A stretch of DNA of 63,068 bases, counting the filler, from Hausera hauseri (taxonomy: Eukaryota), in the NCBI GenBank assembly GCA_046269625.1. It is 11 parts of 11 records of this genome, joined end to end, with 100 filler letters (N's around TTAATTAATTAA, not from the genome) between each part and the next. Parts side by side here need not be neighbours in the genome. Positions count along the whole stretch, not along the records: positions 25,354 to 30,016 come from JBJURY010484798.1; positions 30,117 to 35,236 come from JBJURY010329604.1; positions 35,337 to 40,122 come from JBJURY010436249.1; positions 40,223 to 47,065 come from JBJURY010059662.1; 7 more parts are not named here. One strand, 5' to 3'. A program made the translations under genes and the position numbers. Below the pieces are notes generated by a model that did no database searches, was not told the DNA's origin, and was given only the letters and a program-made list of their open reading frames with translations. Of this stretch, positions 25,354 to 49,839 are shown in pieces (positions within the stretch are counted from its first letter, which is position 1; every line of letters starts with the position of its first letter).

Positions 25354-26995
25354 CATAGAAATCCACAACCACGACATTTGATTCTAATCCTTTTCCCGTG
25401 TCATATTCTGCTCCATTACAATGTCCGCTAAGCATATCCAATCTTCCAGCTACTACTTTGTATGCTCTGATTATTTTTCCGGGCTGCATCTCCAGTTGCA
25501 TGCTATCCCATTGTATCCTTCCAGTTTCTTTAGCTTGTTTACAATGTTGACGCTCTAAATTCATCGGAATTAAAGGAGTGGTGGGCTTAATTATGGAGGA
25601 GTGCCCATGTATTAGTCCGCAGTGAAAAATGCTGCGTGACCGTTTTAGCATGCATTCCATACCATCTAACGATACCAATTCTTGTTGTTGATACAGGAAG
25701 TAATTTTTCTCGCGCGTTTCTAGTTTGTGTGGCCTCGCATCTTCGCAGGCTTCTAGATCCATTAAAGAATATTTTTGTCCCAATTTAAACTTGTCACAAT
25801 TGTAGACAGTTACTGCACTTATGTGCTTCATTATCATCATTAATGTAAATAAACTAATCAGCCAATTCGATTCATTTTTCCGACCTCCAACGTCCGATGT
25901 TGTCAGACTACGTAATATATCGTCGAGCTTATTGTTGCCCCGTTTATCTTCTTCCTTATCAAATAATTTTGTCCAATTTACTTCGCCGGGTATTCTTCTC
26001 GCCACCCTCCGTGCTAAATTTATTGCTCGGTTAATTTCAGTTTCTCGGTTCGGGTTTATTTTGACGGTTAGATACAGCAAAATTTTCCTCAATTCTTCAT
26101 TTGTGTTTTCTACCATAATCTTCTGTATTACCGACTCATCGGTTAAGTTACATTTTGATAGTTTGAAACGAGTACTTTTCATTATTTTAGCTGCGTCGAA
26201 AATTATCTTTTCCTTATCATCTAATACGTCTCCTCGGAAACTCGAATAATTCACAATTCGTACTAAATTTTTTACCAACTCAGTTAACTCCTCGTTTTCG
26301 GTGCTAAGGGTCGGAATCGACATTTGTCTCAATTCTCTAATTAGCTCTCCGTTGTAATCCACTTCTTCTCGTATCTTCCTAGGTCTGCCGACCGGACGTT
26401 TCGATCTTGGACCTTTAGGGTTTGCCTCGCTTAATGGTACTAAATTTATGTCGTATTGTTCTTTATCTTCATCCGTTTTTAAATATTCAAAATATAGTGC
26501 TGCATCTCGAACTCCCATAATTTGTCCGACGCATTGCTCTGTTATGGCTTTACGTGTGGCTTCCTCCCTTGTCTGCTCATTAGCTATTATTACCACTATT
26601 CGATTTGTTTCGTCGGCAATGATTCCAACGTCTATCAATTGTTCTAAGTCATCTAATATTCTACCCCTAAAGTAAAATCTATAATTCAACTCATTTGTCT
26701 CTCCATTCTTCACTAGCCATTCTCTTACATCCTTTACGTAAGAATGTGTAGTCAATTCGCATTCTTTCTCGTCCATCCATTCGGATGACACCATAACTTT
26801 CAACATAACCTTAGGTTTAGTCCTTAAGGTTTTAGCGTACTTCTTTATCAACAATTTCGGCACCGTACTATAAATTGTGTTTTCGCTAGACAACTTAGTT
26901 AAGGTGGGAATAAGTTGTCGTAGTTCATTCTCAGCAATATTTACGTTAATCGACTCCATCAAATCTTTCTCAGTTAAGGCTGAGTCCAGTAGCAT
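25354..26995 (-). mobile_element. env: Polyprotein segment: Ubl domain (26806-26582), AT-hook (26401-26375), internal signal peptide (25867-25814), class III glycoprotein N-terminus
   Basis: VKDVREWL...YRFYFRGRILDD..QLIDVGI; KRPVGRPRK; WLISLFTLMMIMKHISA|VTVYNC...YSL..LEAC...IFHCG...HCKQAKETG...GHCNGAEY. Confidence 0.8.
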
Positions 26996-27010
26996 TTCTA
27001 CTTTGAATCT

Positions 27011-28960
27011 CTAGTCCTTAGGACAAGTTTCTATTTCGTTTAGCTGCACGGGGGTCATAGGTTTTTCGGCCAGTATCTCGTCGAAATATGCGTCCCATTC
27101 GGGTTCGTTTTTGGCATCTAGAAGTCGGCAGTCCACTAAAACCGTATTGTCTCTTTGAATGTTCTCCCGAATTTCCTTTAATTTAGGTTGTATTTCTTTC
27201 ATTCTCATAGTTCGGAAACCTATTCCATTTCCGCAGGCATATTGTATGGTTTTTAGTAATTCCCCGAATTCGTTAGAATCAATCAGCCCTTTTTGATGAT
27301 AATCGGTCATTTCAGGAATCACATCCTTTTCCCACCGTTGTACAAATTCTCGTTTATTTTTAATCTCCGATTCAGTAAAAGCATACTTCTTACGATAGAC
27401 CGCGAGCTCCTTAGTTAATTCGTCTATCCTTATCGCTTTTTGTTTCGTTTTAATAGCTGTTTCTTCTACCTTGTGTATTTTGGGCATCAGTTGCCTCATC
27501 TGCTCATCACTGATTTCCGCCATTTCCGCCAATAAATAGGCTAACTCATACATCTCATTTATGGTCTTTGAATCTGGATCCATCGCATCCGACAATTTCT
27601 TCACGAATTTGTGTTCCTGAAAGCTAAAATGTGGATCATTCCCTATTTCTATCAACTTGGTATGGGAATTCTGGTCTGATCCGGCCATCCATTCTTGAGG
27701 TTTCTGTAAGAAACTTATTGCATCGGTTAGCGTATCTCGGTATCCTGGACAAATGTCTAGAATTTCAATATCTTGTGCAAAAATTTCGTCTATTGGTTTT
27801 CCGGTTAAGTACTGAATTCCTTCCAACCGGACGACCTTTAACTTCAAATTTACATCGTGAATCATATTCCGTTTCTCCGTAAAGTTCGCTTCTTCAATCA
27901 ATTTGTAGATTCCTTCCATTGTTGACAATTCTCGTTCCTTTTCCATAAATTTTAGTTGCAGTAGCGCTTCAAATTGAGTACGGATATTTATCTCTATTCG
28001 CAACGTGGCTAAGTTGTGCGCACTTTGCTCTAATTGCTGCTTCACTGTTTGCTCACTTTGCGGAAATTTCGTTTTACGATCTTCTACCAATTTGGTTAGT
28101 CGCGCTACTAACTTGGACCATTCCGGCAATTGATTTGTAATTACAGGCTTCGCTATTATTGCTTTATCTAACATCTTGTATGCATCTTCTAATTCATCAT
28201 CCGGTCCTTTCAGAAAATTCATAACTCGTCCGATATAGTTAAACTCGTCCTTGTATTCGTCCAATTCTACAATACAAGCCTTTACTATATATTGGGTCTC
28301 CTCATGGTTTGAAATCATGATTCGGTTTTTCAAGCTATAAATTTGTGCTCGCTTTTCATTTTCTATCTTCAGCCGATTCTCCAAGTTTGTATATTGTTTG
28401 AGCGTATCAAATGCGACTTTTATCATTTCCATTAAAGGAGGAATATCTAACGGATCTATACCCATTAATTCCAAGTCAATATTACTGCGTTTGTTAGGCG
28501 GTTTTTCCCTAAGCCGTTTAATCATCGCATAACGAATTTCGTTCATGATACGTTCTAAGTTGCGAACTACTCTCTTCAGTTTCGGGTTTTCTTCTAGAGT
28601 AGATAATAGCTTTTGAACCTCAGTGACTTTTACGTCAACTCTATCTTCGTTCTTATTCCATCCTTCTACAAACTCGACTCCACTTTTAATCCACAATTCT
28701 AATTCGTGTTTCTATTTTGATAATTTTTCCGGAGATACCTTTTCAGGCTGTCGCACCTCGATTGCTTCAACGAATTTCCCTCCGCTACGTAATTTCAAAC
28801 TTTTATATAGTTTCTCGGCGTATTGTTGTTCTTTTCCAGATATATCGACTTGTTCGATAATTCGCTTAAGCTTTTCTAAATTTTGCTGCAATATCTCAGG
28901 CTTTAAACAATCAATTTTATTTTTTTTAATTCGTCGGCGTTTTTCCATGAACGTCGGATA
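27011..28960 (-). mobile_element. Long helical/coiled-coil polyprotein segment of copy A, function unknown
   Basis: ORFs 28712-28948, 27011-28696 and 25354-26995 share one frame, separated only by single TAG codons at 28714 and 27013. Confidence 0.7.
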
Positions 28961-28962
28961 TT

Positions 28963-30016
28963 TTACTTCTTGGGCTCAAAATATTCAGTAATCATTGTTT
29001 CTTCCTCGCTAATGGGAAGTGGGCATATCTCGTTAATCTCGCCAATTGACTCTTCCGGTTCTGGTGTATTTAAGCCAAGGTCCGGGCCACCTTCTAGAAC
29101 GATGCTCGGATTTTCTGTTCTTTTTATTTTTTCTTTTGTTATTTTGGAACGCGAACGACTTCTATGTTCGGTTTTTAACGATGGGCTACGGCCTGTGTTT
29201 TTGGTAATTTTGAGTATTAATGGCTCCATAAATTCTTTTTCTGCCGCTTCATCTTCAGTGAGTTTAGCAACTTTTTCAACTGCGAGTTCGGGCTCCGCGT
29301 CTAAATCGACTACTGTCGACGGATCTGGTTCATCTGGCGCCTTGTTACTTGTCGGAATACTCTTCTTCCGCGTCATATCGCTTCGCTTAGGTGCTATGTC
29401 ATGTTTGTATTCCGTCTCGTGTTCTGTTAACCCGTGATATACCTCTAGCAATCTCAATTTATCTCCGTATTCTCTTCTGGCCATCAAAATTTGTACGTTC
29501 GTAGTATCTGGTTGAGTCGCCAAAAATTTTCTCAAATCCTGTATGTCGATGATGGTGGTCGTATCTCCCCGGACGCCATATTTTGCTTCTAAGTTCTCAT
29601 TAATTTTAATCATACTAGTCTTATTTGGTTCGGTAAATGAAACGCTACGCGGATTTGGACATGACCTCGAAATGTGTCCTTCTTTGCCGCAAGTAAAACA
29701 AACCAAATTTCCATTCCTGCCGACTCTCTGTCGACCGTCTTCGTCAACTGGTGACTTGGATCTAATTATGCCTTTACTAAACTGATTTGACGGGCTTTGC
29801 GTATTATCGGTATTTCGTTTGTTATCATTACCTCGGTAATCACCAGTTTGATTCGAGTAGGTTGAACCTCTGTAACTTCCTCTATTCCTATCCCAATCCG
29901 AGTCTGGTTTGTTTGTATAATTATTACCTCTGCCATTTTTGTAACTGTTATTATTATTCCTATTTCCATAATTTCTATTACCTGTAAATCGTCTGTCATC
30001 TCTTCGGTCATCTCTT
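28963..30016 (-). mobile_element. gag: Gag C-terminus: R/G/N-rich nucleocapsid and CCHC knuckle of large env-bearing LTR element, copy A
   Basis: Frame open from contig edge; RDDRR...RGSYRG..., CFTCGKEGHISRSC. Confidence 0.85.
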
Positions 30017-30116
30017 NNNNNNNNNNNNNNNNNNNNNNNNNNNNNNNNNNNNNNNNNNNNTTAATTAATTAANNNNNNNNNNNNNNNNNNNNNNNNNNNN
30101 NNNNNNNNNNNNNNNN

Positions 30117-31860
30117 AGTAGCTCTTTGTTGTCACTCACCTGAAGAGCTTCCTTCGCCCTGTTGACTCGTTCTTGGTTAGTCACCTTACGGCCAAACTTG
30201 GCTTCCAGGTTGCACATATCTTGCTGCAATATTTCCTTTTCCGCACGTCTCCATCCCAGTTCTATTCCTAATGCGTTTTGCGAGTCCACACCACCTATTA
30301 TTTTTGGGCATAATTCCTACACTACCAGGAATGTTACACGTCTCCTTAGACCCTTGATTTCTACATCTGTTGTCACTGTACCAAGGCAATCTAAGGGGCT
30401 ATGGTTCTCACATAATAGTGTGGTATCTGATTTCTCTATGTGTGCGTTTGCAAGTTTATACACGGTCTTCTTGCTTATGACGTTTACCCTGGCCCCCATG
30501 TCCAATAAGCAATCTTCCCATCTGTCTTGTATCTTTAATATTATTCCTAGTCGTCCATTATACTTTCTGTATGCTATCTGTTCAACATATAATTCTTCTA
30601 GCGTAAAGATCTGTGTATCGTTCCCACTTCTCTCCATTCCGTTGATGGATACTTCCTGAAACTTTTTCGGTTTTCAATAATTTCTCCACTTTTCCTGCGT
30701 CCTTTTATCCATCATAATATCTCCGTATCCCTTCTTCTTGATCCGTCTATACTGTTTGATATACAACTGTTATTATACATAACGATATTTTGGGAGACTT
30801 TCTATTGTAGTGTCCAGATTTGCTCCACTTCTATTGAGGCTCTGCCTTTTGGGACAACTGACTACTGTTCCGATTCTGTTTCTTCTTCCTCTACGTTTGC
30901 GACTTTCCCCGTCTTCTATTCAGATTATCCCCATACTTTCTTTTCACTCTGTATGTATCCCATCCTGGTTCTCTTTTCCCCTCTAGCCTGGTGTAGCACT
31001 CATTTTCGGTATATCCCCTATGGTGATATCTCGCATAAAATTTGTACAATTTCATCTTATGTGCCCTAGCTGACCACATCCGTAGCATCTTACTGGCTTT
31101 CTTTCGGTACACTGCCTGCTTATGTGTCCTTCTTTTCCGCATCCAAAGCATTTAATCGGTCTCCGTGAGGTGAAAGTTCTGCTCGTATGTCCTTCCTTAT
31201 GGCATGTCCAACACTTTAATCTACTATTTGGTGGTCTAGTTGTGGTCGTACTGACTCTAGGAACGGGTTTCCTGATATGTTGTGCTGCCACTTCCTGGTA
31301 GCTTCTTCTACCGATCCCTGTATACTCGTTGACCGTGTTGACTTCTTCTGTCTTCATCTTTACTTCGTGTATTTCCCGTACTTTCTCCTTTACGGTTTCC
31401 GCATCTCGTTTGTCACTTACGCATATTTCTCTTCTCATCTCTCTATTGTTACAACATTGGTACAACAGTTCCGCTTTTAGAGCTGCGCGTGAAAGATCGT
31501 GTTTCATGACTTTACCCAGCAGTTTCTCGATTGCCTCGACATAAGCCTCCGGTTCCGCTTCATTCATTCTGTACTCGAGCGCTTCTTTTAGATCTTCGCA
31601 CAACGTTGAGGATCGGGCGAAAGCCTTCCGTAGTCGGTTTTGATATCCAGTTATTTTCGCATCTACTGTCTCGTATCTTTCTTGTGCTTCTTCCTCCAAG
31701 AGGCATTCAACCATGATTTCCTGGTTCCCTGCCGGGGTGTTCATATATATAAAGAATTTGTCACATCCTTTAATGAACTTCTCCACGTCGTTGCCTTTCC
31801 TGAATTTGTTGGGAACAATTGATTCGCGATAATATCCCATGTAGCGTAAGTCGCCATGTT
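30117..31860 (-). mobile_element. Ty3/gypsy gag-protease, degenerate (gag ATG 31840)
   Basis: Three knuckles (CWTC, CFGCGKEGHISRQC, CYGC); protease LLDMGARVN; ACA-TGGCGAC PBS-like site just before ATG. Confidence 0.82.
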
Positions 31861-31989
31861 GGCTGCGGGCGTATCCACGCCGTTCACATCTCCAAAATTG
31901 AAAATTCAAATTTAAATTAAAAATCAATAAATAAAGAGTGTGTGTTGATATTGTTATATTTTTCATTATTTCAAATATCCTTTCAACAA

Positions 31990-32560
31990 ATGGTGGGTTT
32001 TTAATTCTGCCCTTCTCAACTATACCTACTTTTAGAATTGCAACTTCTATATAGAATGCTTGGAAAACGTTCATTATGAGCAGAATTGCCATGATACAAT
32101 GAAACGATATTTCACTTACAATTTCAACAGATGCGAATATTTTATATGTCCAGCATGTGAGACGGTTAGAAGAACTATCTATGAAGTATTCTATGATGTC
32201 CATAAACGTCATCTCTTTTTATATAAAACATCTGAGAAACAAATCTTCAGCAAGAGCAAACCCAGCATATCTTTTACTTCACGAATGGTGTGATTTGAAT
32301 ATCCGAAAATTAACTATATACCTATTTAGAATTGCAAATATGATTTGTACACACTGTACATCCAGTATGCACATGGCTCAGAACAGTGACAACACAGTGC
32401 AGCGTTATTATGCCTATAAGAACAACAAAGTGGATTTCTTCATCTGTCTAAGATGTAAGATTGTGAGTGCAGCAGACTACCTACAATTTTACGATTGCCA
32501 TAAAAGCATTTGAGTGACTTCATAATCAAGTCGAAGAAGGTGATCTTCATCGAACAACAT
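31990..32560 (+). pseudogene. Tandem Cys/His domain gene with introns 31993-32035 and 32288-32329
   Basis: ATG|GTGGGT..TTTAG|NCNFYIECLENVHYEQNCH...CPACETV...FYDVHKRHL; second copy follows a second ATG|GT..AG. Confidence 0.78.
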
Positions 32561-33204
32561 AAAGATGCAATTAATATATTCAATGCTGCAACAAGTTCAG
32601 TTCATCGCACAGGATTAAAACGGACAGCAGGCAATCGCAATGTAATTGTTTATTTCTATCTCCATACAATAATTTTTTAATATCATCTATATCTTTAGGA
32701 AATGAAATTAGAAAAACATTGTTCTCATTTACTCTTTTAGTAACACTATGTAACGTTTTTAAATGTGTTTCACAATTTAAAATTCTTTGTCTAACTTTTC
32801 CTATATTTAAATTAAATCGATTGATTAATGTCTCATAATCTTTACTAATTTTCATATATTTTTTGTAATTTTATTTGAAGCACTTATAATCTTAATTATT
32901 TCATCATTTTGATTTTTTGTTTTATTTAAACTTTCACAATTTATATTTTCATTAATGAATAAATCTTTATTTATATGTTAATTACTATTGGCAAAAAAAT
33001 CACTTGAAATATGACCTTTACTTTTAATAACTAAATCTTGATTTATTTTACAATTTTCTTTAATAACTAAATTATTAATTGAATCACCAGATTCATTAAC
33101 AAATCGTTTTCTTTAATGTCTATTATATCTTTTCTATAAATTCCAAATTAAATAGCTTGCCCTGCATGTTTAGTTGGAATGTATATCATCTTAGGGAATA
33201 AAAT

Positions 33205-33626
33205 TTATGGAATTAAGGGTTTTAAAGAATCATAAATATCTTCAATTGCATCCTCAAAATGAGAAATATTCTCCAATTTATACAATAGAAATGTGCATAG
33301 TACACAACAAATTTTTGTACCATATGGTTGAACCTGTTTTTCATTATACGCATAATCGTCAACTAGAAAACTTTCTACTTCAAGCTTTGGTTTAATGCCA
33401 AAAGAATCAAAATAGTACTTTCTGTCTCTAAAACATACCAAATGATTACCATCTTGATTTGAATTTTGATAATTAATTATTATAATTCTGGACTTTGTCT
33501 TATGAAGTTAATCATTTATAATTACATTGATTTTGAGACCTAATTTATTAGCAATATCATACAAATCAAAATTTGTAGTCTTTGAAATTCCAAATGTTTT
33601 TAAAAGTTGAGTATAGATGCATCCAT
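33205..33626 (-). mobile_element. Polinton adenain-like cysteine protease, degenerate
   Basis: IINYQNSNQDGNHLVC, YYFDSFG..P, YNEKQVQ...ICCVLC. Confidence 0.82.
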
Positions 33627-33644
33627 TTTATAATAATAATATTT

Positions 33645-33750
33645 TATTATCCCTATACCTGCTTCAAATGTAAACACAATAACTTTTCCACCGTTGAAAT
33701 CTATAATCTTTCCTTCATCATCTAAAAATTTTATATTTGGTCCACTTATA
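33645..33750 (-). mobile_element. Possible C-terminus of Polinton minor capsid-like protein
   Basis: IKFLDDEGKIIDFNG motif next to the protease. Confidence 0.5.
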
Positions 33751-34099
33751 ACGGCGGGTTTGAATTGCTCATCAATTATTGGTGAGACAACATTTCTGAA
33801 GTCATTATGATGTCAGGCCTTAAATTAATATTTAATTTATTTTAAAATTAATTTCGCTGAGAAAAATAATTTTAAACGTTAAAAAAATTACCACTTACTA
33901 TTGAAATCAAAATTAGAAATCAAATTAGAATGTTAATTTAAATTTAAATTAACGTTTCTTCATATTATTAATCAGCATAATATTTTGTACATAATTAACT
34001 ATTTTTTATAAAAATAACCTGTGTGTGACAGTTGGAAATGTTCCTTTGTTAATCATTTCTAATAAATCATGAAAATTCTTACCCAAAGATGGCCTGAAT

Positions 34100-34480
34100 T
34101 TAAAACCATTTCTACGTTTTTCAGAAGTCTATATACACATGCGGCTTTGATCGAACCATTCATTGTTCGAATTCCGACTTCCGAGGCCAAATAATAAAGA
34201 TCTGACAAATAGATATCTATATTCTCCCTTTGGTATAATGTTCTCTGAATAAATTATTTGAATGCCTGGATTGGAGGCAGCAAACACAGCCATTAATTCT
34301 ATCTTCCGTTTTTCATAGTCGCTCTTAGCTTTCTTCGGTAGCGTCTGATAAACTGACAGCGTGTAGCCACTAAGAAACAGCGGAATTAAACTGTACCTTT
34401 CGGAAATACATTGCAGTTGGCATACGATGTCAACTTTTGAATCTACTGGGTAAAATCAGAATAACTGTCATATTAGGAAA
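34100..34480 (-). mobile_element. Gypsy gag N-terminal remnant
   Basis: LIPLFLSGYTLSVYQTL...K.DY, ENIDIYLSDLYYLA. Confidence 0.55.
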
Positions 34481-35336
34481 TTTAGTCCGATAACTTTAGA
34501 GACATAACGACCGTGATAACTTGTAAGATAGTAAAAACCTTTATTTGAAACTATCACCAATGAAGTATTTTCATGTATTTCAATAAACTGATATTTTCCG
34601 TATTCTCACAATAATAAATAAGTGCCGATAATCACCATGTAATTAAAATAATTAACAAGGAAACAAATTTTACTGAAAATCTAGATATTTTATAAGAAAT
34701 TGTCAGAGAGACGTACAAAATACAATGCAGAGTAGTATTATGAAAACAATTTTTGCCAAGAGAATAACTCATTTGGAACCTTTAAACGTGGCAGTCATGT
34801 GATAAACACAATTTACACACGAAGAGACTTTGGGTTTCACAACCTCCTAAGCTAATACGAATAGAATTTGAGATTTCTCCTCCCTTCTAGACTCGAGAGA
34901 TTTATTTTGACTTAAAGCAGCCTGCGGGTCCTGTTTGTTAGTTTATTTGACCTTATTGAGTTAAGAACACTAGGAGGTACACGAGCGTCGTTCCCTAGAT
35001 TTAACTATTTTCAGACCTCGATGTATTACAGGGTCCGATTACAAAGTGGGCCCTCCAATTTTTGAATTTAATTAAGCCTATAACGATACGTACGTTATTT
35101 GAAATAATCAAAAAGTAAAATTGTGAAATATATAATTTAATGTAATAAGAAACAATATGTAAATCAATAAACAAGGTTTTCATCGAAAATAAAACAATAT
35201 ACAAGTCTTACAGGAATCATACATATAGGAAGACTTNNNNNNNNNNNNNNNNNNNNNNNNNNNNNNNNNNNNNNNNNNNNTTAATTAATTAANNNNNNNN
35301 NNNNNNNNNNNNNNNNNNNNNNNNNNNNNNNNNNNN

Positions 35337-37400
35337 GGCTTGAAATTTATGTCCTTTCTAAGAGTGCGGAAGCAAGAAGTTTTGATGAAGGATTTAAGAT
35401 TGGGTTTCAGTGATAAGAATGATGAGAGCATATTATTGGAAGAGTCGGTGGCTGTAATTGATGTAGAATTACGGAACACTTTATTAATGATATTTGGTTC
35501 AATCGATTGTTTCAAGATTGATTTGTTCTCACTTGATAAAATTGAAAATATTGGTGAACTATTAAGCGTGTTGTTATCAGTTGATGAGGAGCATGTCAAA
35601 TTGAAATTTGAATGAACAGAGGAAGACAAGGTATCCGACTGGTCGTTTGGTGAGCATTTGTTGGTATTTGCAACGGAGTTTCTACGCAGAAGGCATCAAT
35701 GCTTACAGTCGACTAACAAATCGTATGCAGCCAGGAAATCGGAGCCTATTATTGGCGATCTGATGTTGGCTATGTGAAATTTTTAGGAGAATTTCCCTGC
35801 AAGGTTGGAGAATGTGAAAGACAGTTTGGTGGTACCTACAATGTTCAAAGGTTGACCACAGGCAGTGAAGAGTGGAGAAGAGAAAACTGTGTTAGATGTA
35901 GGAGCGAAGGACAAAGCAAGAAGTGAAAAGGCAGCTCCTGAATCAATGAGGAAGTTTATGTGTAAGGTGTCTCCAAATAACATTTTAGCCTTCAACAGAA
36001 AGACTACAGAGGCGGTGCGAAACGGCCAGAAGTTTGAGCGATATTGCATGTACCAGAATATGTTGTGGCATCTGGTGGCATTATTAGTTTTTTGAGGATT
36101 GTTGGAAAAAAGAAGAGAAATGATGAGTACGAGGAGGCGAAGAGAATGGAGAAAAACTAGAATTCATTTTATAATATTTGCATCCTGCACACACGACCTA
36201 GCCTTGGACTGATACTTTGTGTGATAGATGCAGATCGGGTTGTCTACTGCATAACGTTTATCGTAGAATCAACAATCTAAAACACACTTTCTTGCTTCGC
36301 TACCGAATTTATTGTGATAAAAACCAACTCGAGATTTAGACCGAGAATAATACCTGGTAAAGCTACGATTACGCAAAAAACGGTTTTAGTTTTCTCGGAG
36401 CATGGATAAGTCACTGAATTTGGCCGTGATCGCAGAAATTGCCTGTTTGAGTGTGTCGAATTGCTTCTGCATCATATGCAGTTGTTGTGCAAATAAAGTG
36501 TTATCTGTGTGCGACGGTGTGTTAGAGGTTGTTGGAGCTACTGACTGTGAACTATATGATTACAAAATGTCAAAACTTTTGTCTGCCAATAAGGCGAGCT
36601 TTTCAAGGGCCGTTGAGTCGTCTACTACTGTGAGCAGCGCTCTGATGGAGGTTGTCAGGATGAAAAAAAATACCGAAGAAGAAGATCGGCATTATTTACG
36701 GGAGTGACTCCCAAGAAGCTCAATTTCGAAATTCCAGTTATAAGGAAATCCGACGGCTTTTGATTTCCGATGGCGTGTTCATTAAAGTATTTCTGAATTA
36801 TGTTGTTAATGAAAGGGTCGGTGATATGCAAAACTAATTCATAAAGCATATCATATGGACTTGCAGAAGTAATTATGTCAGCAAAATTGTTGATTTTCTG
36901 CTTGATATTAGCTGGACGTAGTAGTAGCAAACTGTTCGCCCTCAAAAAGGAGTCTGTAATATGATTGGCTCTAAGCCATTGCAAATGGATCTGTAACGAA
37001 GTGCGACTCGAATTGCTTTTATCAAGAAAAAATATGTGCAAAAAAGAGTTGGAGATGTAGTTGGTGTGGGGTCGGCAGGACGACGACCAGATCTGGGTTT
37101 GGTTAAATTTTCGGCCGAAGGGTCAGGGTCTGATTCACCACAAATACGAAAATAGACAGTGAGAATCATTGAATGTTTCCCGGATGCAAAGGGTAGCAGA
37201 GTCGGAAGGTAACAGAGTCAAGCCATTGTGCATGCAATAAAAGTCAGAGGAGCCGAAAAAGGAAGACAATGCAAAATAAAGGATGTGTGCCGTATGTTTG
37301 TATGCAACCCACAATAAGTACACGTTTATTATTGGAAAAAAGAAACAAAAAAGGAAGGGGATGTGGTGCAGCGGGGGCGGACATGCTCGGTCCCTCAGCT
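35337..37400 (-). mobile_element. CsRn1-like gypsy: probable LTR/PBS, gag with two CHCC-type knuckles, protease
   Basis: TGGTGA PBS-like site at 37140; QKPSDFL; FYHNKFGSEARKCVLDC and ICIYHTKY; FLIDSGAAFSLL. Confidence 0.75.
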
Positions 37401-37754
37401 ATGCAGTTTATCAAATGCACCGTAAATGTAGTAAGATATCTAATCATAAAATTACTTCTAAAAGTTCCAATGGACTGTGTAGTCTGAGTTGTCACAAAGA
37501 CGTCTGCAGTATTTGTGGTAGACCCCAATGAACCTGAATTATCCGGCGTAAAACTGGTTGAAATGGGCCAAGTTTTAATACTGTCTTCATAGACAGTAAC
37601 ATAAATATTACCATTAAAGTTGGAGAATGATTTTGTATCGGTGACATGTCGAACTCTTGTTGTCTGTGTATACATCTGATCCACATTTGTCAGTCGATTG
37701 AAGATCATTAGTGTTTATTTTCACAGTAATGTTATAGAAATGTTTATTCGAAAC

Positions 37755-39545
37755 CTCTTTGGACATGCTCGTATACGCATAACGGTCCGTCTCAATGATG
37801 ATTGCATTACCGGATTGTGGATGGAGAGCAAAACGCCGTGGTGTATAACTTAACGGATGGCTGATTTGATTGAAAATTGTACCCAGTTTTTCCAGTGCCA
37901 GAATACGCAACGAATTTTGACAAATAGCAACAATTCCTTCAGGACATTGTTCGGAAGAAAAACTGCTTGCATATTCCAGTGCTTCATAACTCAACGGAGT
38001 GAGATGGAATCTATTCTGATACGTGTAGTTCAACCATGGACGAGTGGAAATGGCCAAAACTGCTTCACTGCCCTGGACCATAATTCGGAACAATTTGACC
38101 GGTTGGTTACCGAGATATCGAGTTCTCGTGTCTGACAATTCACCTTTAACTGGATCTAATACAGTTCGTAATAGACCACCATTTTGAAGACCGATGTTAA
38201 GATATAAAATGCCAGCATTAACTTGAGATTGGTCTTCGAATGATTCACCACCACCGAGTTCGGCAATGCACAGTGATTCCGGATTGACGGGTAAACTTTG
38301 CATCGTTAACTGAATTAGACATGCTGATGGATCCAAGTTGTAAATACGGACTGTCTGGTCTGCCAACCCAACCGCTAAGAAACGAGATCGTTGTTCATCA
38401 GGCGGAACAGAACCAAGGGCCATGCAGGTAATGTCAACATTGGTTTCTCGACGACCTTGGAATTCATTGAGCTGACCGGAATTTGCGTCCATTTCAAAGT
38501 AGACAAGTTCATTCCCAGTCAATGCAATTACGACTTGACGAAGATTTAAAGCACATTTGATAATGGACCTTTTCTGCGGAACTCGCCAAACGTGCACTCG
38601 CCTGTCAGGCCTAATGTGACGAATACCTTCTGGATAAATCTGGACCAAAGCATCTTCACCTAACTGCGCACACATTAGAGTTGGAGTTGTTCCCAAAAAA
38701 CCACTATCGGTTACTTCTTCAACCGTTTCGCCAATCGATAAAACCAGAGTTGCATTAACGAATGAAACGACGATATATGCATCATACTCTTCATCGGACG
38801 TTCTTTTTACAGTCCACACAGCATTGGGATGACCAGGAAGGTCGGATTTTGCCATAACGGAAACTTCTAAACCATGTGACAACAATCTTAAAGACGATCG
38901 TGGACCACGACCACAGAGTAAAGCTAACTGTGGTGTATCCTCATTGGCCAGATCGGCAATGTGACAGCACGTATAAGGATCTAAACTAGTGATTTCATCA
39001 ATAGACTGAAGATTTTTAAGTCCTCTTGGCGCAAAATAAAAGTATCGCCTTCTTCTAAGGGCATTGCTGATAAAAATTCAGGCTCGTCGTCACCATCACC
39101 GAGATTCGTAATTTGGTACAAGTATTGATTACCAAATTCTCTAGCAAAAAACAAAAATCCTGTTTTTAGGACACACATGGATGTTGCAATTGGAACTGTA
39201 TCGAAATACTTCAAACGCATTTCTCGTACTATCTCATCATCTGTCTCTAAGGTAATCTTGAAAATGTCACCTTGTTCAGTTTCTGCCAAGAAAAAGTTTT
39301 TTCTTTGGTTGATCACTAAAATTCTTATACGTAATGTAATTTTCTGAGCAAATAATAACACCCGAAGGACCTTATTTTCCACCGGGAACAGAGATTGAAA
39401 AGTTCGCATTCTCTTCTAATTTTTCACAACTTTCTAACTACATGATTCAAGCCTAAATCCAATTCATAATAAGTGAGGTGTTTACGAATATCTTCAATAA
39501 CTTTTCCAGTAGTGTCAAAATCAGCCTCGGAATAATCAATTTCAA
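37755..39545 (-). pseudogene. SF3B3: Splicing factor 3B subunit 3 internal fragment, disrupted at its 5' end
   Basis: [68 protein letters not shown]; TAA at 39374, deletion near 39305, frameshift near 39040. Confidence 0.93.
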
Positions 39546-39584
39546 TCGAATATTCTCTCGGTTTATAAACGGCTTAATGTTGAC

Positions 39585-40122
39585 CCAATGGAACAATTCC
39601 AATTCGGCAGTTATGTTCGGAAAATCCTGCAAAACTTCAATTAATTTCTGTCGAGGAATAAAGCAATACGAATAAAGATCATCCAGACTATCCGTTGCCA
39701 ATTCCAGTAATCGTTCTTTCTCAAATTTATGTTTGGAGAAAAATGATAGGGCTTCAAAAAAACTTTCGAGGAACGGAATTCAAATCGAAATAACACCGTA
39801 CGAAATAATCCACGGTGATAACGTTATTCAGAATCAAATCTAGCAGGATAAAACACGAATAACTTGAAGAAATTGAAATAATAATAAGCTCACGATCGAG
39901 ATGTGTTAAATTAAAAAATAAAAACGTATCCTATGATGTATTTACCGGATAAACAACCAAAACGTCACCAATATTGTATTTGTTATTTTCTTTGTGAAAT
40001 TTCACGAGTCTTGTGTCTTGAAAATGTTCATTCGATGTCACTCGATCATTGGGTATAATACAAAATGGGGAACAGTTTTTTGATTTCACATAAACCAGAG
40101 TTGCTTTGACTGTGGTCAAATG
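39585..40122 (-). pseudogene. NDOR1: NADPH-dependent diflavin oxidoreductase 1, FAD-domain fragment
   Basis: NDRVTSNEHFQDTRLV, GDVLVVYPVN, DLNSVPRKFFE, EKERLLE, LYSYC..PRQKLIEVLQDFP. Confidence 0.85.
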
Positions 40123-40222
40123 NNNNNNNNNNNNNNNNNNNNNNNNNNNNNNNNNNNNNNNNNNNNTTAATTAATTAANNNNNNNNNNNNNNNNNNNNNN
40201 NNNNNNNNNNNNNNNNNNNNNN

Positions 40223-41860
40223 ATTAATATCGTTGGACGGAATGGAACGTATGTTGAGACGATCTCGTAGCATCTTCCATTGTGGATTGATGTACGGACA
40301 TTCGTCAATAATCAAACCAACAACTCATCCGATCCAAATGAGTGTGGAACACCAGCATTGTAAACAGGCCAAGGAAACCGGAAAACTAAAATGGAAGAGT
40401 ATGGAACTAGACATGAAACCAGGAAAGATAATTAGGACATATAAAGTAGTGGTTGGAAGGCTAGACATGCATAATGGACATTGCAATAAAGCAGAATACG
40501 ACACCGAAAAAGGATTAGAAGCAAACGTAGTGGTCGGGGATTTCTATGAATCGGAGATGCGAGTACAGAAAGTAATGTTCCATAGCTTCACCAAACTACA
40601 AATCGAGAATGAAAAATGCCATTTACAAGACGGAACCTGTGCCTTCAGAAGTTCTGTTATAATATGGGAACCTTCCTCTGGAAGTAACTGTAATTTTATC
40701 AAAATCAAGGAATTGAAATTCAACGAAACTACCGGCAAACGGTATGTAGACAAATCTTATACCAACTCAAGGACACACGAGGATGTTGCAGAATACCCTA
40801 CACCTACTATATTGATTTCCGACCAGCATGGACTAAAATTTATCAAGAAAGAAATGATCACTCGTTGTGAATTGGTGATGTTCGCCACTAATTATGAAGC
40901 ATTTTCGTCGCAGAAACGGAAATAAATGCGAAAACGTACAAGGTAGAAACGCAGGACATCCGGATTGAGAATTACGTGAAAAACCGAGATGATTACTTTT
41001 ATTACAAAAGACAAGTTGGAATAACCGAATTATATCACAAAATGATAACGAACAATTATAAATTAGATATGGAAATCATTAGGACAAAATTGGATCTCAT
41101 CTACGTTAACCCTGAGTTAGACTTTCCAATAATTCCTGAGAGAAGGAATTTTCGGTAGAGTTACCGATGAAGTCCTACTGACTTATGAATGTAAGAAAAG
41201 AGACGTACCAATCAACGTTGAAGAAAAACATTGCATACAAGAACCTTCTGTTATTTACCAGAATTCTTCGAGGTTAGCCACGCCGCTTACTAGAGTGTTA
41301 TTAGACAATGCAACTGAACCAAAAATCCTTAAAGATTTTAAAACAAGCTTAGAAGAACCCATTTTTATACCTAGTGAAACGGATGGGTCAGTTTGCGAAA
41401 CGGAGGTATTACTGCCGCTCCAAATAAATTTACAGGAACAAATTTCGCAATAGGAATTACAGACGACAAATTTCAATATATCTCATCGAAAGGTATATAT
41501 AGGCCTAAGGAAATTGAAGCTTTCAGACAATTTCTTGCTTTTCCGCCACAACGGACACACGAGTTGAATCGAGCCATGGCCTCCGTAGTATATGATACTC
41601 TATATCAAGCAAAATGGTAATCACTACTTGGCGTAAACCATTATCAGCAAGTAACCACAGAAATACTCTACAAAATTTGGGGGAGATTTTTAATTTTTGG
41701 ACAAGCTGCATCCGGGTTTTTAGCAATATATTTCCTAATACAAATGATTAAAGCAGTCATCCAAGCAGAGATAAATGGATGTAAAATATTTACACTGACC
41801 GGATTTTCATGTAAAATACTAACTGCAATTACAACGCCTTTTGGAAAGTTCTTGAAAGCA
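40223..41860 (+). mobile_element. env: Class III (chuvirus G / gB-like) envelope glycoprotein, copy B, degenerate
   Basis: IFHCG, HCKQAKETG, CHLQDGTC..SVIIW, EVLLTYEC, PLTRVL, GIY..KEI...RQFLAFP, C-terminal hydrophobic IKAVI..EING...GFS..ILTA; about 76% aa identity to copy A over 106 aa (hand count). Confidence 0.82.
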
Positions 41861-42539
41861 TATGAAGAGAATAGATGGAAATCAAACGTAGAACGCCATG
41901 TCGGTTACCATAATCGTAAACGAAAAGGAAGACCGATGTTTTTGTACAAGCGGAAACTCACGAAAACTAACACGCGAAGAAATAATTCAGATGATGACTG
42001 GCCTAAGAGAGGAGAAGTATTTTCCAGAAAAGACAGACACCAGATGTATTCCGTCGTTAAAGCACCATTGCCCATGCTACCCTCTACTGCTCCAGTCTAT
42101 GAAGACTGCGACAAACGATTAATGAGCTCATATCAGACAGAAATTTATAAAAGACAATTAGTTTAGAAGATTTCTATGAAGGAACGAAACGTTATGGAGT
42201 CCTACGAAAAATGTGTTATCAACAGCCCATAGATGGTCCCAGAATATTGTATTCCCCGAGAAAATCTCGGAATATAGAGATAAGATCGCCTGTCTGGGAC
42301 AATCCAAGGTTAAAAACCTTTCGGAATATAGAACCACATACTAACAATCAAGAACCATTAATAAGTACCCATAAGACGGAAGAATTAAACATCGAAAACA
42401 ATAAACTGTATCCAAACGGGGAACTAAGACAATTAACGGAGAACATAGTATCCTCGCCGGAAATCCAAATTAATGGACATAAAATATCGACTATTAAACG
42501 CCCAAAGGCTGCATTAAACTGTTTTGAAACAGTAATAGA

Positions 42540-45500
42540 AGGAAGACCCTTCGCCAAAATCATTCTTGAAGACTGGGAAGTTTATGCATTAATCGATACA
42601 AGTTCTGAAATGTCCTACATTAAAAATGATTCAATCCCTCAAACGCTTAGAGACAGTTATACCCACCATCTACAAAAGATCCAAAAAGCACAGGAGCTTT
42701 TGGTCGAATGTCAAAACCGATATACAAATGGAACTCAGAAGTGCAAATAGCTGGACAATTTTTCCGTCATGAATTCGCAGTTATGGAACAATTAACTGAC
42801 GATGTAGTTTTAGGATGTAATCTATTAAAAAGACTATCGAATATAGCAATCGACTTAGAAACGGGAAAATTAATAGAAATTAGACCAAATAAAGGCGTAA
42901 AAAATGCTAGGGATAGAAAATTTGGGGAAGTGTGGATACCATCAGATAAAAATATCCAACCGAGAACAGAGATAATATTTTACGCACAAGTTCAACAAGA
43001 TGACGATCAACCGGTATATTTCGAACCAAAGGAGATATTAAATCCGATTATAACACTTAGTAACATACTGACAAGAGTGCGCTCCGGTCAAATACCAATT
43101 AGAACAGCAAATAGTGCACCGACCCCCGTGAAGCTTCATGCTTATACAACATTGGGAGATACATATAGAGTGTCAGCTATAACTATTGAAGAAAAACCTT
43201 ACAAATATGCCGAATTCCCACTGCATGTTGAAACTAAATTTTCCCCCGAATCTTATTGTCGATTCTATGAATTATTATGCCGCTATAAGTCGATTATTAC
43301 TAAGGACGATGAGGATATTGGTAGGGCAAAGGCATTAAAGTTGACTATTCCGCTTAAGAAAAAGCCTGGTTCGAATGAAGCGATGGATCTTGAAGATCAA
43401 AAGATGCCGAAATGGTATCCTCCGCCACATTCACTAAGGCACGCGATAACAATGCAAGTCGAGCGAGTGCTTAAGGCCAATATAATTAGGCCCATTTATA
43501 GACCTCGGTATTCACCAATCCTCATGGTCAAAAAGAAGGATACTACGAAACATCGATTCTGCATTGACTACAGAGCATTAAACAATCTCATGATGAAAGA
43601 TTCCTTTCCATTGCCATCAGTAAAAGAGGCTTTAGACAGACTCTCGGGAGCAAAGTGGTTTACCACACTGGATTTACAATCCGGATATTGGCAAGTAGAA
43701 ATCGAAGATGAAGACCGATATAAAACTGCATTCAAAACACTATGGTGTCTACGAGTTTAACGTCATGCCATTCGGTATTACTACCGGACCGGCCATATTT
43801 ACGAGTATGATGAACAAAATGTTATTGGGGATAGACCGTTCTTTTGCGTATCTAGATGACGTAATGATAGCATCAATGACGGCAGAGAAACATCTGAAAG
43901 ATATTGAACACATGTTAATGCGACTAGAACAGGCAGGACTGAAATTAAATCCGAAGAAATGTAAATGGGCTCAGAACGCAGTATCCTACCTTGGCCATAA
44001 AGTTGGAGAAGGAGGATCAAAGCCAGATAAATCATTACTAAACAAAATATCAGAGTGCATAGAACCACAAAATTAGAAGTAATTAAGGCATTGGCTAGGT
44101 CTTTGTGGATATTATGCGTCCTACGTGCCGGATAACTCGAAAATCATATACCGTCTACTTAAAAGGGGAATTAAATGGAAATGGACACACGTCGAACAGG
44201 AAGCTTTTGACGAAATGAAGATATTAACAAATGAACCAGTTTTACGAAACCCATACTTTAATTTACCCTTTATAATCAAGACAGATGCCGGTAAGGAAGG
44301 TATTGGATATTAATTAGCGCAGAAAAGAGAAGACGAAGAATTAGAACACCAAATTGCTTATGGAGGACGTTCTTTGAAGAAGGCCGAGAAAAATTATTCC
44401 GTCACTGAATTAGAAACCTTAGCCGTAAAAGAAGCGCTACGACATTTCAACGTTTACATACACGGGTAGAAAATCATAATTGTTGCTAATCATAAAGCCG
44501 TCACTACCCTAAAAGGACGAGCGAATAATCCAACATGCAGACTTAACATATGGATCGAAGAAATCTCTAGATACAATATCGGATTTCAGTATAGGCCAGG
44601 AAATAAGCATGTTAATGCCGACGCCCTATCGAGATTAAAAACCAAGGCGAGTGCAATTACTGTTATGAAGAAAAGTCAGCTTGAAGAAATAATAGATTGC
44701 CAACGCACCTTAACGATAGACAAAGCGATTAAAATCTCGACCGAACAAAGAAAGGATGGGATTATGCAGCAGATCATAGAATTTGCTGTAAAGGACACAA
44801 TACCAAAGGGACGACAATTACAGAATTATCTACGTAGACATAGACACAAATATTGCATTCTGAACAACAAGTGCCTCGAAAACCTTCTGCATTATGAACG
44901 AAAAGGAAGAAAACTGATAGTTATTCCGAAAAACTTACGAATGGAAGTTTTGATGTCGGAACATGATTCATATTTGGCAGGACACATGTCCTGGAAGAAG
45001 ACATTAGAGAGAATATCGAACAAATACTTTTGGCCCAGCATTTATATCGATGTAAAGAATTGGGTAAATGCTTGCGAAGTATGTGCAACTAAACAGAAAA
45101 AGACGAAGAATTACATGGCAGCGCTAAAACCAATCGCTGTACCAGATAGGCCTATGCAAGCCATGTCAATGGATATTGTAGGACCGCTTCCTACGACCAA
45201 CAAGAACAATAAATACATCTTGATTTGTATTGATCGGCTAACTCATTTTTTCGAGTTGATAGCACTAACCGATCAGAAGGCGGAAACCCTGGTCTAAGCT
45301 GTAGTCAGAAGAATCATTTGCCGATACGGACCCCCAGACCAAATATTAACAGATCGAGGAAGAAACTTTACCAGTGAACTATTCGAGAAGATTAGCAAAA
45401 TATTTGAAATCAAAAGATTAACCACGACTGCGTATCATCCTCAGTGAATGGAATGGTTAAACGAATGAATGCAACTGTCATACGCATACTATCAACAGTA

Positions 45501-46010
45501 GTAGCTAAAGACCAGAAAGATTGGGACGAATTTTTAGAAGGAACTCAATTTGCAATTAATATCACTCCGCATCTAGCAACAGGATTTACTCCTTTTTATG
45601 ATGTACGGACGTAAGGCTGCGTTATCCACAGACTTAGAAATGACGCCATACACAGTCAATCCCGAAGATTTAGAACAAAATTTTGCCGAAGTATTACAGA
45701 TGCGACTACACAAATGTTGGGAAATCGCCAAGGAGTTATCCCGAGAATATCAAGAACATTTTAAAAAGCAATACGATAGGAAGGCTAAGCCATACGATTT
45801 AGAAAGAGGAAATTGGGTTTATGTACATTATACGGCAGCCAAGAAAAGTTCATCATTAAAACTGACTCGTACAGGCCGAAGACCGTACGAAGCTATTAGA
45901 GTTACGCCAACTGCGGTATACATTAACATGAATGGAAAGGAAGAAGTCGCATCTGTAAAAAGATTTGTTAATATGGAGATACGGCCCAATAAACGTTATA
46001 ATTTACGTCA
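42540..46010 (+). mobile_element. pol: Ty3/gypsy pol: PR-RT-RNaseH-IN, degenerate
   Basis: LIDTSS 42589; RFCIDYRALN; LDLQSGYWQV; MPFG; YLDD 43849; TDAG; NYSVTELE; NADALSR; HHCC; DIVGPLP; TDRG; TTAYHPQ. Confidence 0.95.
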
Positions 46011-46049
46011 ACGCGAGATAAAAACTTCTTCAATAATTACTAGACCGAT

Positions 46050-47061
46050 ATCATACACTCAGATAATCTTAACACTATCGTTAATTGCTTCTTATATTCC
46101 GAGAACATAAACTCAATGGTGGGTTGACGAATCTACGCTATGCGACGTATACGGAATACGGAAAAGCGGACTAAAGGCGGAAAACACCCTAGCGAAGAAG
46201 AAACCAACAGCCAAAGAGATCCAAAAACAAGAAGACACTAGATTGTTACAATCAATGACGGTTCATTACTTCATGCCAGATGCCGTGTGTGTTGGATTTG
46301 AAACTTGGAGACCACATCACGGTTTCGGAAATTTTCAGATTATCCTATACGATGAAGCGACAAAAAAGGCGGAAAAATGCGATTTTGAACCCGGAGATTA
46401 TACCCAATGCTGCGACATGGATTTTTGACATACCTACATCCTTACTTATCGCATGTATTTTCCGGACTCAGCAGAAATCTATGTCAAAGTAAATCCACAA
46501 CTTCAGTTGGTTATTCCCCCTTGGCAGGGGCGATTCGGAAGGAATCCCGGCGAAATACTGCAATCCACCGATTCAGAGATAAGGTTATTAGATGAAAATA
46601 TAAAAAGTATAAATAAGGAAAAACAATGCATCCAAGTAGATGCCCGAATAGGATTAAACCTTAGTCAAGAAATTATTATTGTCTTTGAAGCGGTAAACGG
46701 GAAAACTCCGAAAATAGAATACTGTTCCGTCCGTGCCGGCGTGCAACATCCATGTTGTAAACTGCCATTAAACCGGGAATTCAAAATAAAATTTGACTTA
46801 TATGAAGTGCGACCGAACAAACCGAGTATACAACTACGAACCTATTATCCCGAAAATAGAATATGGAAAATATCAATAGAAACGACAACTAAAAAGCCGA
46901 CTACTCGGATTAGTACCTTTGCAAGGACCATTACGTCGGACAGTACGACTAAGAGAGAATTGGAAAGCATCCCTATAAAATATTTGGCACATCAATTCAA
47001 AATTGTGTTCTGTGCAGAAATTAAATTACGATATACACATAAGCTGCCGAACAACGTATAA
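46050..47061 (+). mobile_element. Post-integrase extension: signal-like segment, two Cys repeats, Thr-rich stalk
   Basis: Same frame as integrase, with single stops at 46108 and 46426; IILTLSLIASY; EKCDFEPGDYTQCC and EYCSVRAGVQHPCC; ETTTKKPTT. Confidence 0.65.
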
Positions 47062-47165
47062 TAATNNNNNNNNNNNNNNNNNNNNNNNNNNNNNNNNNNN
47101 NNNNNNNNNTTAATTAATTAANNNNNNNNNNNNNNNNNNNNNNNNNNNNNNNNNNNNNNNNNNNN

Positions 47166-48900
47166 ACACCCCTCGGAGGCGTGCGAATCGATAAATCAAT
47201 TTGAACATGTGCCAGTCGATTGTGCACAAGGAGCACTATCGATCGGTAATGCGCTAGGTGACGGTGCCATTAAACACCGTTGCTATGCACATTTTTCCGA
47301 TATTTCCAATATTTATGATTAGCATATGTGACCGGGTGCAATCGAGTGCAAAATCGATTCTCTATGTGAATGTGCAATTAAAATTTAAATCGGTCGAGTG
47401 GATTTCAAATAATATCGACTCGAAGGTAAGGTGGTGCAGACTTCACATAGTCTTTTAGGTCCTAAGGATTAAAACTTCGATACAACATTTAGTGGAGACA
47501 GATAGAAAGTCGAGTATTTCGATCTCGAATATAGAGTCGAATATTCAAAATTCAAAAAAAAATTTGGCCCAAATATCGAATATCAAACTTTTCGAAAAGT
47601 CTAGCAACAGAATCCGCTTCATCATTTCCAAATACCTCTTTATACTTTAAAGTTATTCCATGAAAATGTGTTATATAGGTACAAAATCAATATTTGAAAT
47701 TAAGCAATGTGCATTTTAAGCCCAGTGAAGCGGAAGTCGTTAAATCTATAAGCGGAGCTGGATAGGAAGTCATATAGTGTCAATCGGAATATGATGGTAG
47801 ATGATCGAATTCGAGCTTTCAAGTCGAATATTTAGCTATTCGAACTTGAAAACTCGGTCAACCGTACGTTATTTGAAGACTCTGATGGCTTTAGTCGATT
47901 GTTTATGCACGAAAACCTATAGGGCAATCAATATTGGTGCGGTGCAGCACACCGCGGTGGATTAAAACAAGGTTTAATAACAAGTAAAAAGTACATAAAT
48001 TACTAAGTAATTAAAACGGTGCTTATTTTTATTGCACAATTGAGGGTGAAATTCGAGATGAAGCACACTGAAATCTTTAAGCGTAGACAGATAGGAACCC
48101 ATATTTGGCGAATCTGAATCTGGTGTTAGATATTCGAATACATTATTCTAAATCGAACAATTATCGATTCGAACTCAAAAAGTCGATCAAGCATACGTTA
48201 TTCGAAGAATCTGATCAGTCCAATAAATTGCCCATATGCAAAAACCTATAAGGGAATCAAAGTTAGCACCATGCAGTGCACCGTTGTGGATTAAAACAAA
48301 GTTTGTCAATATGGTAAAAATTGCGTAAAAAATATTATGTAATTCAACGGTGCTCATTTGTTTTAATTAATTGGGTAATATTAAAGTGTGAATTTGAAGG
48401 TAAAGCACACTGAAATCGATAAATATAATAGCGCACACAGATAGAAAAGCATATATGGGAAATCCGAATCCGATGTCAGATATTCGAATACATTAATCGA
48501 AATCGATTAATTAACTATTCGAACTCGAAAACTCGATGCAACCTACATGTTTTGAAGAATATGATTGCTTTAATCGATTATCAATGTGCCAAAACCTTGT
48601 GTAGAAATAAAATGGGCTCTGTTCGATGAATCGTTATCGAGTAAATTAACATTGAAAAATTCACAAATGTGTGAGCTTTAATTAACTTGATTTTCAAGGT
48701 GAAGGGTGCAAAAATCGATGAAACTTTAAATGTAAATAGATATGAAAACATGTATGGGGAGTCAGATTATGGCGTCAGATGTTCGAATATCGGTTTACAA
48801 GTCGAATATTCAAATAATTTAATGCTCGAAAATCGATAATTTTAAGTGTGCACATGTTATTTCAATGTGAATTTCAAGGTGATGAAGCAGATTTAGCGAG
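47166..48900 (+). repeat. Complex repeat family with diverged ~260-350-bp subunits
   Basis: gatag(g/a)aa...ga(t)attcgaa block recurs near 47500, 47761, 48090, 48440 and 48738; homologous to 57170-58617 and 58718-59908. Confidence 0.85.
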
Positions 48901-49147: not shown

Positions 49148-49660
49148 ATGGCGAATTTTTTATTTGTGCTCCTCAAATAATTGATTTGTTTAGATTTGCA
49201 ACGTCTACAAATTTTGCATGGCGCAGAAACATGCGGAGCAGAATTGCCACAGTGTGATGCAGCATTATTTTGGATACCAATACAACAGGATTCAATACTG
49301 TGCGTCCTGCATGCGAGGTAGTGTGCCGGATCGGTTAATAGGAATTTTACAACCAGCATAAACAGCATCTGGATTAATTCACAAAATCGAAGAAAGAAAT
49401 ATTCAACAGTAATATGACAATGGCAGAAAGTGTCCCAAAAGCAATTCAGATGTGCGGTTCGTATGCTTATTGCACATCCAAAGCACATAATCTGGAACAG
49501 TGCCATGAAACAATGTAGCGGTATTATGGATACAAATCCAAAAGGATCCAATATTATACATGTCCAGGATGCGAGACTGTATGCGGTGCGGATTACATAT
49601 AGTTCTATTATGATCACAAACATCATTTAAGTCATTTCGCATCAAAGTCCAAGAAGACTA
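49148..49660 (+). pseudogene. Tandem Cys/His domain at the 5' end of pPolB, putative intron 49151-49193
   Basis: ATG|GCGAAT..TTTAG|ICNVYKFCMAQKHAEQNCH...PACEVV...FYNQHKQHL; CGSYAYCTSKAHNLEQCH...CPGCETV...FYYDHKHHL. Confidence 0.78.
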
Positions 49661-49839
49661 TCTTCAATACACAACATAATCTTGATGCATCTGTTTCGCA
49701 GTATGATGTTTCGCATTATACTGCTGGATCTGTTGCAGCAGCTGTGAAGCATATTAGAGAATTGAAACTCGCAGCCGCATCAGGCACAGCCACATCAGGC
49801 GCAGCCACATTAGATGCAGCAGCTCCAACAAAATGTTAA

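Follow-up and report, generated by a model that had tools for sequence, protein, structure and literature searches.

The DNA analysed in this study is a stretch of 63,068 nt (the window) from Hausera hauseri (assembly GCA_046269625.1), in which 11 contigs are joined end to end. The spacers between the contigs (8270-8369 and nine others) each consist of a 12-base TTAA repeat with 44 N on either side, and adjacency within the window is artificial. Two of the contigs carry broken pieces of a Ty3/gypsy retroelement whose envelope gene (env) lies between gag and pol. These are contig A (25354-30016, minus strand, JBJURY010484798.1) and contig B (40223-47065, plus strand, JBJURY010059662.1); because A and B are separate contigs, their closeness in the window carries no meaning. 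The features of the two contigs are given below in coding order, where X denotes the region between gag and env, PR, RT, RH and IN stand for protease, reverse transcriptase, RNase H and integrase, and P numbers are our identifiers for related proteins.

28966..30015, minus: C-terminal part of Gag, an N/R/G-rich region and one CCHC knuckle (29653-29703), from PF00098 zf-CCHC (E 2.3e-06) and an open reading frame (ORF)
26804..28991, minus: first part of X, rich in E, K, L and I and probably helical or coiled-coil from its composition, with stops at about 28714 and about 27013
26561..26803, minus: ubiquitin/SUMO-like (Ubl) domain in X, from a held-out profile (E 2.9e-08), a PDB profile search, a model and Foldseek
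26378..26395, minus: GRP motif following the Ubl domain, from a pattern match, which we take to resemble an AT-hook
25900..26377, minus: probably helical region, at the position where the planarian element Burro has a Bcl-2-like domain; no significant match
25829..25861, minus: internal signal-like hydrophobic stretch before env (Kyte-Doolittle 2.49 over 11 aa, the maximum of the frame)
25355..25828, minus: N-terminal part of Env, a chuvirus/gB-type class III fusion glycoprotein by its match to PF24664 (E 2.6e-15), cut by the contig end
40224..41704, plus: Env ectodomain, second copy, with frame changes near 40900, 41137 and 41380 and a stop at 41618
41705..41761, plus: Env transmembrane stretch, from hydropathy and alignment to P0002, P0043 and P0096
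41762..42560, plus: Env cytoplasmic tail and linker to the protease, from ORFs, with a frame change in the overlap 42151-42166
42541..42900, plus: aspartic protease (RVP, E 0.076; D-T-S at about 42595; collinear with P0096 and P0002), interrupted by a frame change
43500..44574, plus: RT (YLDD at 43849) and RNase H (PF00078, PF17917, PF17919), with a frame change near 43745 and four stops
44923..46020, plus: integrase with H2C2 finger, core and C-terminal region (PF17921, E 2.6e-19; PF00665, E 2.8e-15)
46063..47064, plus: candidate for a second membrane protein, continuing the frame of the integrase, with a signal-like stretch at about 46063-46098 and stops at 46108 and 46426

Read on its minus strand, contig A runs from the end of gag with its CCHC knuckle through about 3.8 kb of coding sequence to a signal-like stretch and the start of a glycoprotein, and contig B, on its plus strand, completes the glycoprotein and continues through the transmembrane stretch and tail into PR-RT-RH-IN. 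Where they overlap, the two copies share 75.9% amino acid identity over 108 aa and 73.8% nucleotide identity over 321 nt, and 57 of the 86 mismatches fall at third codon positions. An earlier reading made from the sequence alone (the sequence-only reading) had proposed this order for A, without a PR or RT motif, and had placed the start of B inside the same glycoprotein at about 76% identity. The order on A is borne out by PF00098, PF24664 and hydropathy, no PR or RT family is found in the three minus frames of A, and the identity agrees with our measurement. It had inferred a coding region of more than 11 kb; the span of A and B sums to 11,181 nt, and neither copy is one open frame, since A has one frame change and two stops and the coding stretches of B contain at least six shifts of frame and eight stops. 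It had overlooked the Ubl domain in X and the coding that continues past the integrase. No long repeat is found inside contig A or contig B, and both end within coding sequence.

A HMMER search with the last ORF of A found 42 proteins, every match lying within the glycoprotein. A word-seeded protein search with the env piece of A among longer proteins gave no match, and scanning metagenome contigs and viral contigs by pattern turned up no related locus in either. The Monjiviricetes fusion glycoprotein family (PF24664) matches not only A but also B up to about 41890 (E 1.9e-20), and an env-family profile finds herpesvirus glycoprotein B (gB) in 43 of its 46 PDB matches (best E 0.0013). These matches agree with the assignment of the glycoprotein to a chuvirus-G/gB-like class III type in the sequence-only reading, and by its sequence Env is of the type called HSV/gB (HSV, herpes simplex virus), that is, chuvirus-like class III. 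In a tree of 33 rows and 156 columns the env pieces from the two contigs A and B group as sisters (SH-aLRT 98), and the relatives have a signal-like stretch at the same position before env.

Contig A starts inside gag, so that the capsid domain would lie past its end; the part that is present weakly matches the Gag of P0001, P0004 and P0096. A further gag-like ORF, with CCHC knuckles at its end (E 1.4e-08), lies at 31055-32218 on the minus strand and is unrelated to A beyond the knuckle. The frame changes between gag and X near 28963-28991. The first part of X (its first 700 aa) has no assigned family, its Pfam matches being weak (E 0.019 or worse); there is no internal repeat in X, and a PDB search with the single X sequence returned nothing. 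Further on lies the Ubl domain. A profile built from segments of four relatives, picked by eye, and tested on held-out window frames gives its E of 2.9e-08 on A, the next best of 66 window frames reaching E 0.16; a five-sequence profile matches PDB chains of the ubiquitin fold, among them ubiquilin-2 (E 6e-06); and the model (predicted local distance difference test, pLDDT, 77.5) matches Ubl and SUMO chains in Foldseek at probability 1.00. The stretch before the signal, 25900..26377, gave no significant Bcl-2 match in the searches made, and weak Pfam matches to Bcl-2 stand just before env in the relatives P0007, P0001 and P0008 (E 0.00096-0.2).

The length of X, about 1,270 aa where all seven relatives measured have 215-624 aa, would fit an explanation in which A and B are different families that share env, part of the long X being a family-specific capture or a nested piece, and in which the joined picture corresponds to no real element. 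The 26% DNA divergence between A and B speaks for this as well, and the comparison with the sequencing run X1 described below covered B, not A. However, X forms a single frame that only two stops interrupt, its coding strand is A-rich like that of B, its Ubl domain is common to four relatives, and the text of PMC6431247 reports a long region of Smc-like type at this place in Burro-1. We consider such an explanation very unlikely.

On B two open frames, 41621-42166 and 42151-42750, occupy the env-pol junction. No CCHC knuckle occurs in the three plus frames of B; in the sequence-only reading, env was followed by PR-RT-RH-IN after only about 0.7 kb with no LTR, primer site or gag. One public sequencing run, X1, is listed as containing B (0.38 of B's words), and no RNA dataset is among those listed as containing B's words. 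At 80% likeness 22,482 contigs of X1 align on B, with none of its 30 bins left uncovered, a contig count that differs from a copy number and comes from a comparison that covered B alone. On 41450-42950, 4,891 contigs of X1 align, 4,248 of them less than 95% alike, again with 30 of 30 bins covered. Among the pieces listed, six from other copies tile 41864-42802, no single piece spanning the whole junction, and 15 of the 36 junction joints are listed, each supported by one contig only. The sequence-only reading had itself named a one-off deletion or nested insertion near 41900-42500 as the event that could mimic such a junction; the summed depth at 42011-42520 is indeed below that of the flanks, and B shifts frame there. 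However, similar depth dips occur inside env and pol, there is no dominant joint or loose end, and the pol of B is independently nearest to env-bearing pols. Since diverged copies in X1 share the junction and cover it in every bin, a one-off rearrangement is for practical purposes excluded, and we give this largely refuted explanation hardly any credence.

The order PR-RT-RH-IN, together with the gypsy-type RT and RNase H, places B in Ty3/gypsy (Metaviridae). Its integrase is collinear with P0095 and P0096 up to 46029, and its PR-RT linker is collinear with those of the relatives; that linker has no Pfam match at E 0.1, and Burro has a dUTPase-like region there. By single alignment, proteins of the env lineage fill the top six places for the pol of B. 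In a tree from a quick search with 46 rows, 8 of them Cordylochernes predictions that were kept, B joins all 7 env-bearing pols in a set of 10 rows (SH-aLRT 95). The top pol matches from Cordylochernes were put aside as probably multi-pol gene predictions. The nearest relatives by pol and env trees are P0096, P0003, P0002, P0043 and P0095, natural polyproteins that come from public assemblies, with identities of 36-38% in pol and 24-34% in env. A second gypsy-type RT lies at 53399-54415 on the minus strand, cut by the contig end, with 44% identity to B over 98 aa; no env is seen on its contig.

Among the 17 of the 42 relatives that were scanned with Pfam, four have env followed by PR-RT-RH-IN and three more have env followed by a protease; P0043, P0096 and P0102 are three further env-PR-RT-RH-IN proteins. 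RT stands before env in none of the 17. The knuckle, env and PR-RT-RH-IN lie in one unbroken frame in P0003, P0018, P0096 and P0102, and env-PR-RT-RH-IN lie in one frame in P0002, P0016 and P0043. P0096 (3,761 aa), whose cluster has four further full-length members that are 99.6-99.7% identical, aligns collinearly to both contigs. The five nearest relatives have the same order as A and B, a Ubl domain in X in P0096 and P0003, and hydrophobic segments behind the integrase, but their X is much shorter and most of them have extra protease-like domains. Several such domains per polyprotein, some of them behind the integrase, occur in P0043, P0004, P0095, P0002 and P0096; P0043 has six Pfam protease-like stretches and contig B one protease. 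Ankyrin repeats are found in P0043 and P0095. P0003, a retroelement polyprotein of eukaryotic type, is filed at NCBI under a Flavobacteriaceae metagenome bin, probably through a binning error.

Because both copies in the window are broken, we infer a single polyprotein from the relatives; the corresponding proposal of the sequence-only reading, a probable polyprotein that threads the membrane, is supported on this basis. The main rival explanation accepts the same gene order but has pol (or X-env) expressed by programmed frameshifting or by splicing, with the shift at the tail-protease linker, which would make Gag and Env more abundant than Pol. It draws on the -1 shift of B in the 16-nt overlap 42151-42166 and on the shift of A between gag and X; a single frame, moreover, would yield Gag, Env and Pol in equal amounts, which retroelements usually avoid. 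No indel is listed at 42150 in other copies, although this is uninformative because the frame change in the protease is likewise without a listed indel. Against a programmed frameshift, the sole slippery-type heptamer near the junction of B is out of frame, seven relatives cross from env to PR in one frame, and B has many other breaks. We regard this rival as unlikely, though less so than the other two.

Behind the integrase of B, the signal-like stretch of the candidate second membrane protein has a hydropathy of 2.1 over 11 aa, and the region contains 10 cysteines in 347 aa, followed by a threonine-rich stretch. Of nine distinct proteins of the env-pol clade, six have a hydrophobic segment after the integrase core, as have none of 28 other pols, a count that leaves out the Cordylochernes rows and four near-copies of P0096; two of the three clade proteins without the segment look cut short. 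The layout behind the integrase in P0002, P0003, P0043, P0095 and P0096 is a signal, an ectodomain, a transmembrane stretch and a short tail, and three of six end in T-x-V, presumably an ending of PDZ type. A profile of the relatives' post-integrase regions finds the held-out P0002 and P0003 (E 6e-07 and 2e-06, single-protein searches) and, weakly, P0043. A PDB search with the post-integrase alignment found nothing, and ESM Atlas gave no usable match for the post-integrase region of B or of P0167. The region in B may resemble a fibronectin-III fold. These sequence features suggest that intact members likely end in a second membrane protein. No published account of a membrane protein behind the integrase was found in the open literature, a search that left subscription papers and Repbase outside and covered the main text of PMC13524379.

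Taken together, we consider it probable that A and B are decayed copies of one many-copy Ty3/gypsy lineage with the order gag-X-env-PR-RT-RH-IN, likely Burro-like, and that its intact members encode one predicted polyprotein threading the endoplasmic reticulum (ER) membrane, likely with a second membrane protein at its end. Gag and X would stay in the cytosol, and the internal signal would direct the class III glycoprotein into the ER, where signal peptidase would cut. The Env transmembrane stretch would then halt transfer, so that PR-RT-RH-IN would be made on the cytosolic tail of Env, from which Pol may be freed by the protease of the element itself. A second signal behind the integrase would send the second ectodomain into the ER, and Pol would reach the putative particles tied to Env, not to Gag. 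This topology is derived from the domain order and the hydrophobic segments, and otherwise from general knowledge of membrane polyproteins.

Several observations weigh against this interpretation. No long terminal repeat (LTR), primer site or capsid domain is found within the 63,068-nt window, gag and pol are never together on one contig of it, and both copies are broken, B shifting frame exactly at the linker between tail and protease. Because of the 26% DNA divergence A and B are to be regarded as subfamilies, and of the two only A shows X. Since the relatives were identified as single proteins, they are unbroken ones by construction. The row of B in the pol tree, itself only a quick one, is a long branch of odd composition, and the gB matches depend on profile positions contributed by relatives, not on residues of the window. 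The Smc-like, BIR, ankyrin, MATH/TRAF and Bcl-2 domains of Burro (PMC6431247) have no Pfam match in the A or B pieces, the ends of the element lying outside these contigs. Behind the integrase, B shows no transmembrane stretch before the contig ends, the relatives' profile misses its region (E 0.61), and its model is poor (pLDDT 38, all-beta in the better half). The gene from which the host is judged, SF3B3, lies on a different contig from A and B.

The layout, whose novelty the sequence-only reading had implied, is already published, for Burro in 2019 (PMC6431247) and more widely in 2026 (PMC13524379). The text of Arkhipova and Yushenova (2019, PMC6431247), which cites Jurka 2007 and Grohme 2018 as sources for Burro/GYPSM1, describes in this planarian element a 4,873-aa ORF with a CCHC Gag, Smc, MATH, Ubi2/SUMO-like and Bcl-2 domains, an env with mononegavirus hits, and pol; it also reports decayed Burro fragments in Dugesia japonica. 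Burro elements exceed 30 kb and have multi-kb LTRs. A and B resemble Burro/GYPSM1 as described there in an env between gag and pol with matches to mononegavirus glycoproteins, a CCHC Gag, a Ubi/SUMO-like domain before env and a long gag-env region, and probably also in very many copies and a flatworm host. Burro is one giant ORF with env in frame; A and B are broken, and the frame is unbroken in four relatives. A and B differ from Burro in showing one knuckle, in a contig that starts inside gag, against two or three in Burro, and in the short env-to-PR linker and single protease of B. The Burro text in PMC6431247, as distinct from its other material, names no membrane protein behind the integrase. 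A and B are pieces of a Ty3/gypsy GAG-ENV-POL element that, by description and not by sequence, works like Burro.

Chary and Hayashi (eLife 2026, PMC13524379) describe GAG-ENV-POL 'ancient errantiviruses' with an HSV/gB-type ENV in Platyhelminthes, Nematoda and Bryozoa, and supplementary file 1 of that paper contains at least nine flatworm elements, six of them belonging to Schmidtea mediterranea and reaching as many as 215 copies. A and B share with these elements the Ty3/gypsy pol, the gB-type env and the position of env before pol; however, those elements are intact, LTR-flanked and present in near-identical copies, whereas A and B are broken fragments with stops and frame changes. The main text of PMC13524379 is silent on Burro, on a polyprotein and on a second membrane protein. 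It cites non-canonical nematode endogenous retroviruses with env and pol flipped (Sacco et al. 2022), which are alike in this respect, although the host here is likely a flatworm. The fragments in the window thus add a divergent family, whose pol is about 38% identical to that of the closest protein among those found, from a host that is likely a further flatworm.

We speculate further, tentatively and as something that we rate somewhat short of an even chance, that Burro-like flatworm elements are enveloped viruses with two glycoproteins, whose polyprotein may make four crossings of the ER membrane. The class III fusogen would stand in the middle with Pol on its tail, a fast-evolving surface protein behind the integrase may attach to or remodel the host cell surface, and Pol would be packaged via Env, not as Gag-Pol. 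No demonstration of how Pol behind an Env tail enters particles, or of the role of the post-integrase protein, was found in the searchable literature. Since planarians are amenable to RNA interference and proteomics, both questions are testable on natural elements; the broken copies A and B are poor material for such tests.

The host was judged from a large exon of the splicing factor gene SF3B3 (37617-39077, minus strand, on contig 35337-40122), which groups with flatworms (11 rows, SH-aLRT 99). Two proteins match it at 84-85% identity, and it sits beside named parasitic flatworms. On this sequence the host is likely a flatworm, and a free-living one, and may be a planarian.

Several other features lie in the window. 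An unbroken ORF of 862 aa, in which the protein kinase domain occurs twice (Pkinase, E 3.7e-67), is found at 11039-13627 on the plus strand. Decayed coding stretches on two contigs, 15226-18961 and 49345-53083, share about 30% mutual identity; one piece of the pair has a match (E 8.4e-06) to the organellar and viral type of DNA polymerase B, and the two stretches are possibly Maverick/Polinton-like remains. A repeat family is present on three contigs (47186-48790, 57173-58612 and 58719-59905), with 70-82% identity and internal repeats of about 330-340 nt. Pieces of host genes include an AMP-binding enzyme at 6493-7245 on the plus strand (E 3.2e-31) and a Cse1-family importin at 61905-62528 on the minus strand (E 3.5e-16).

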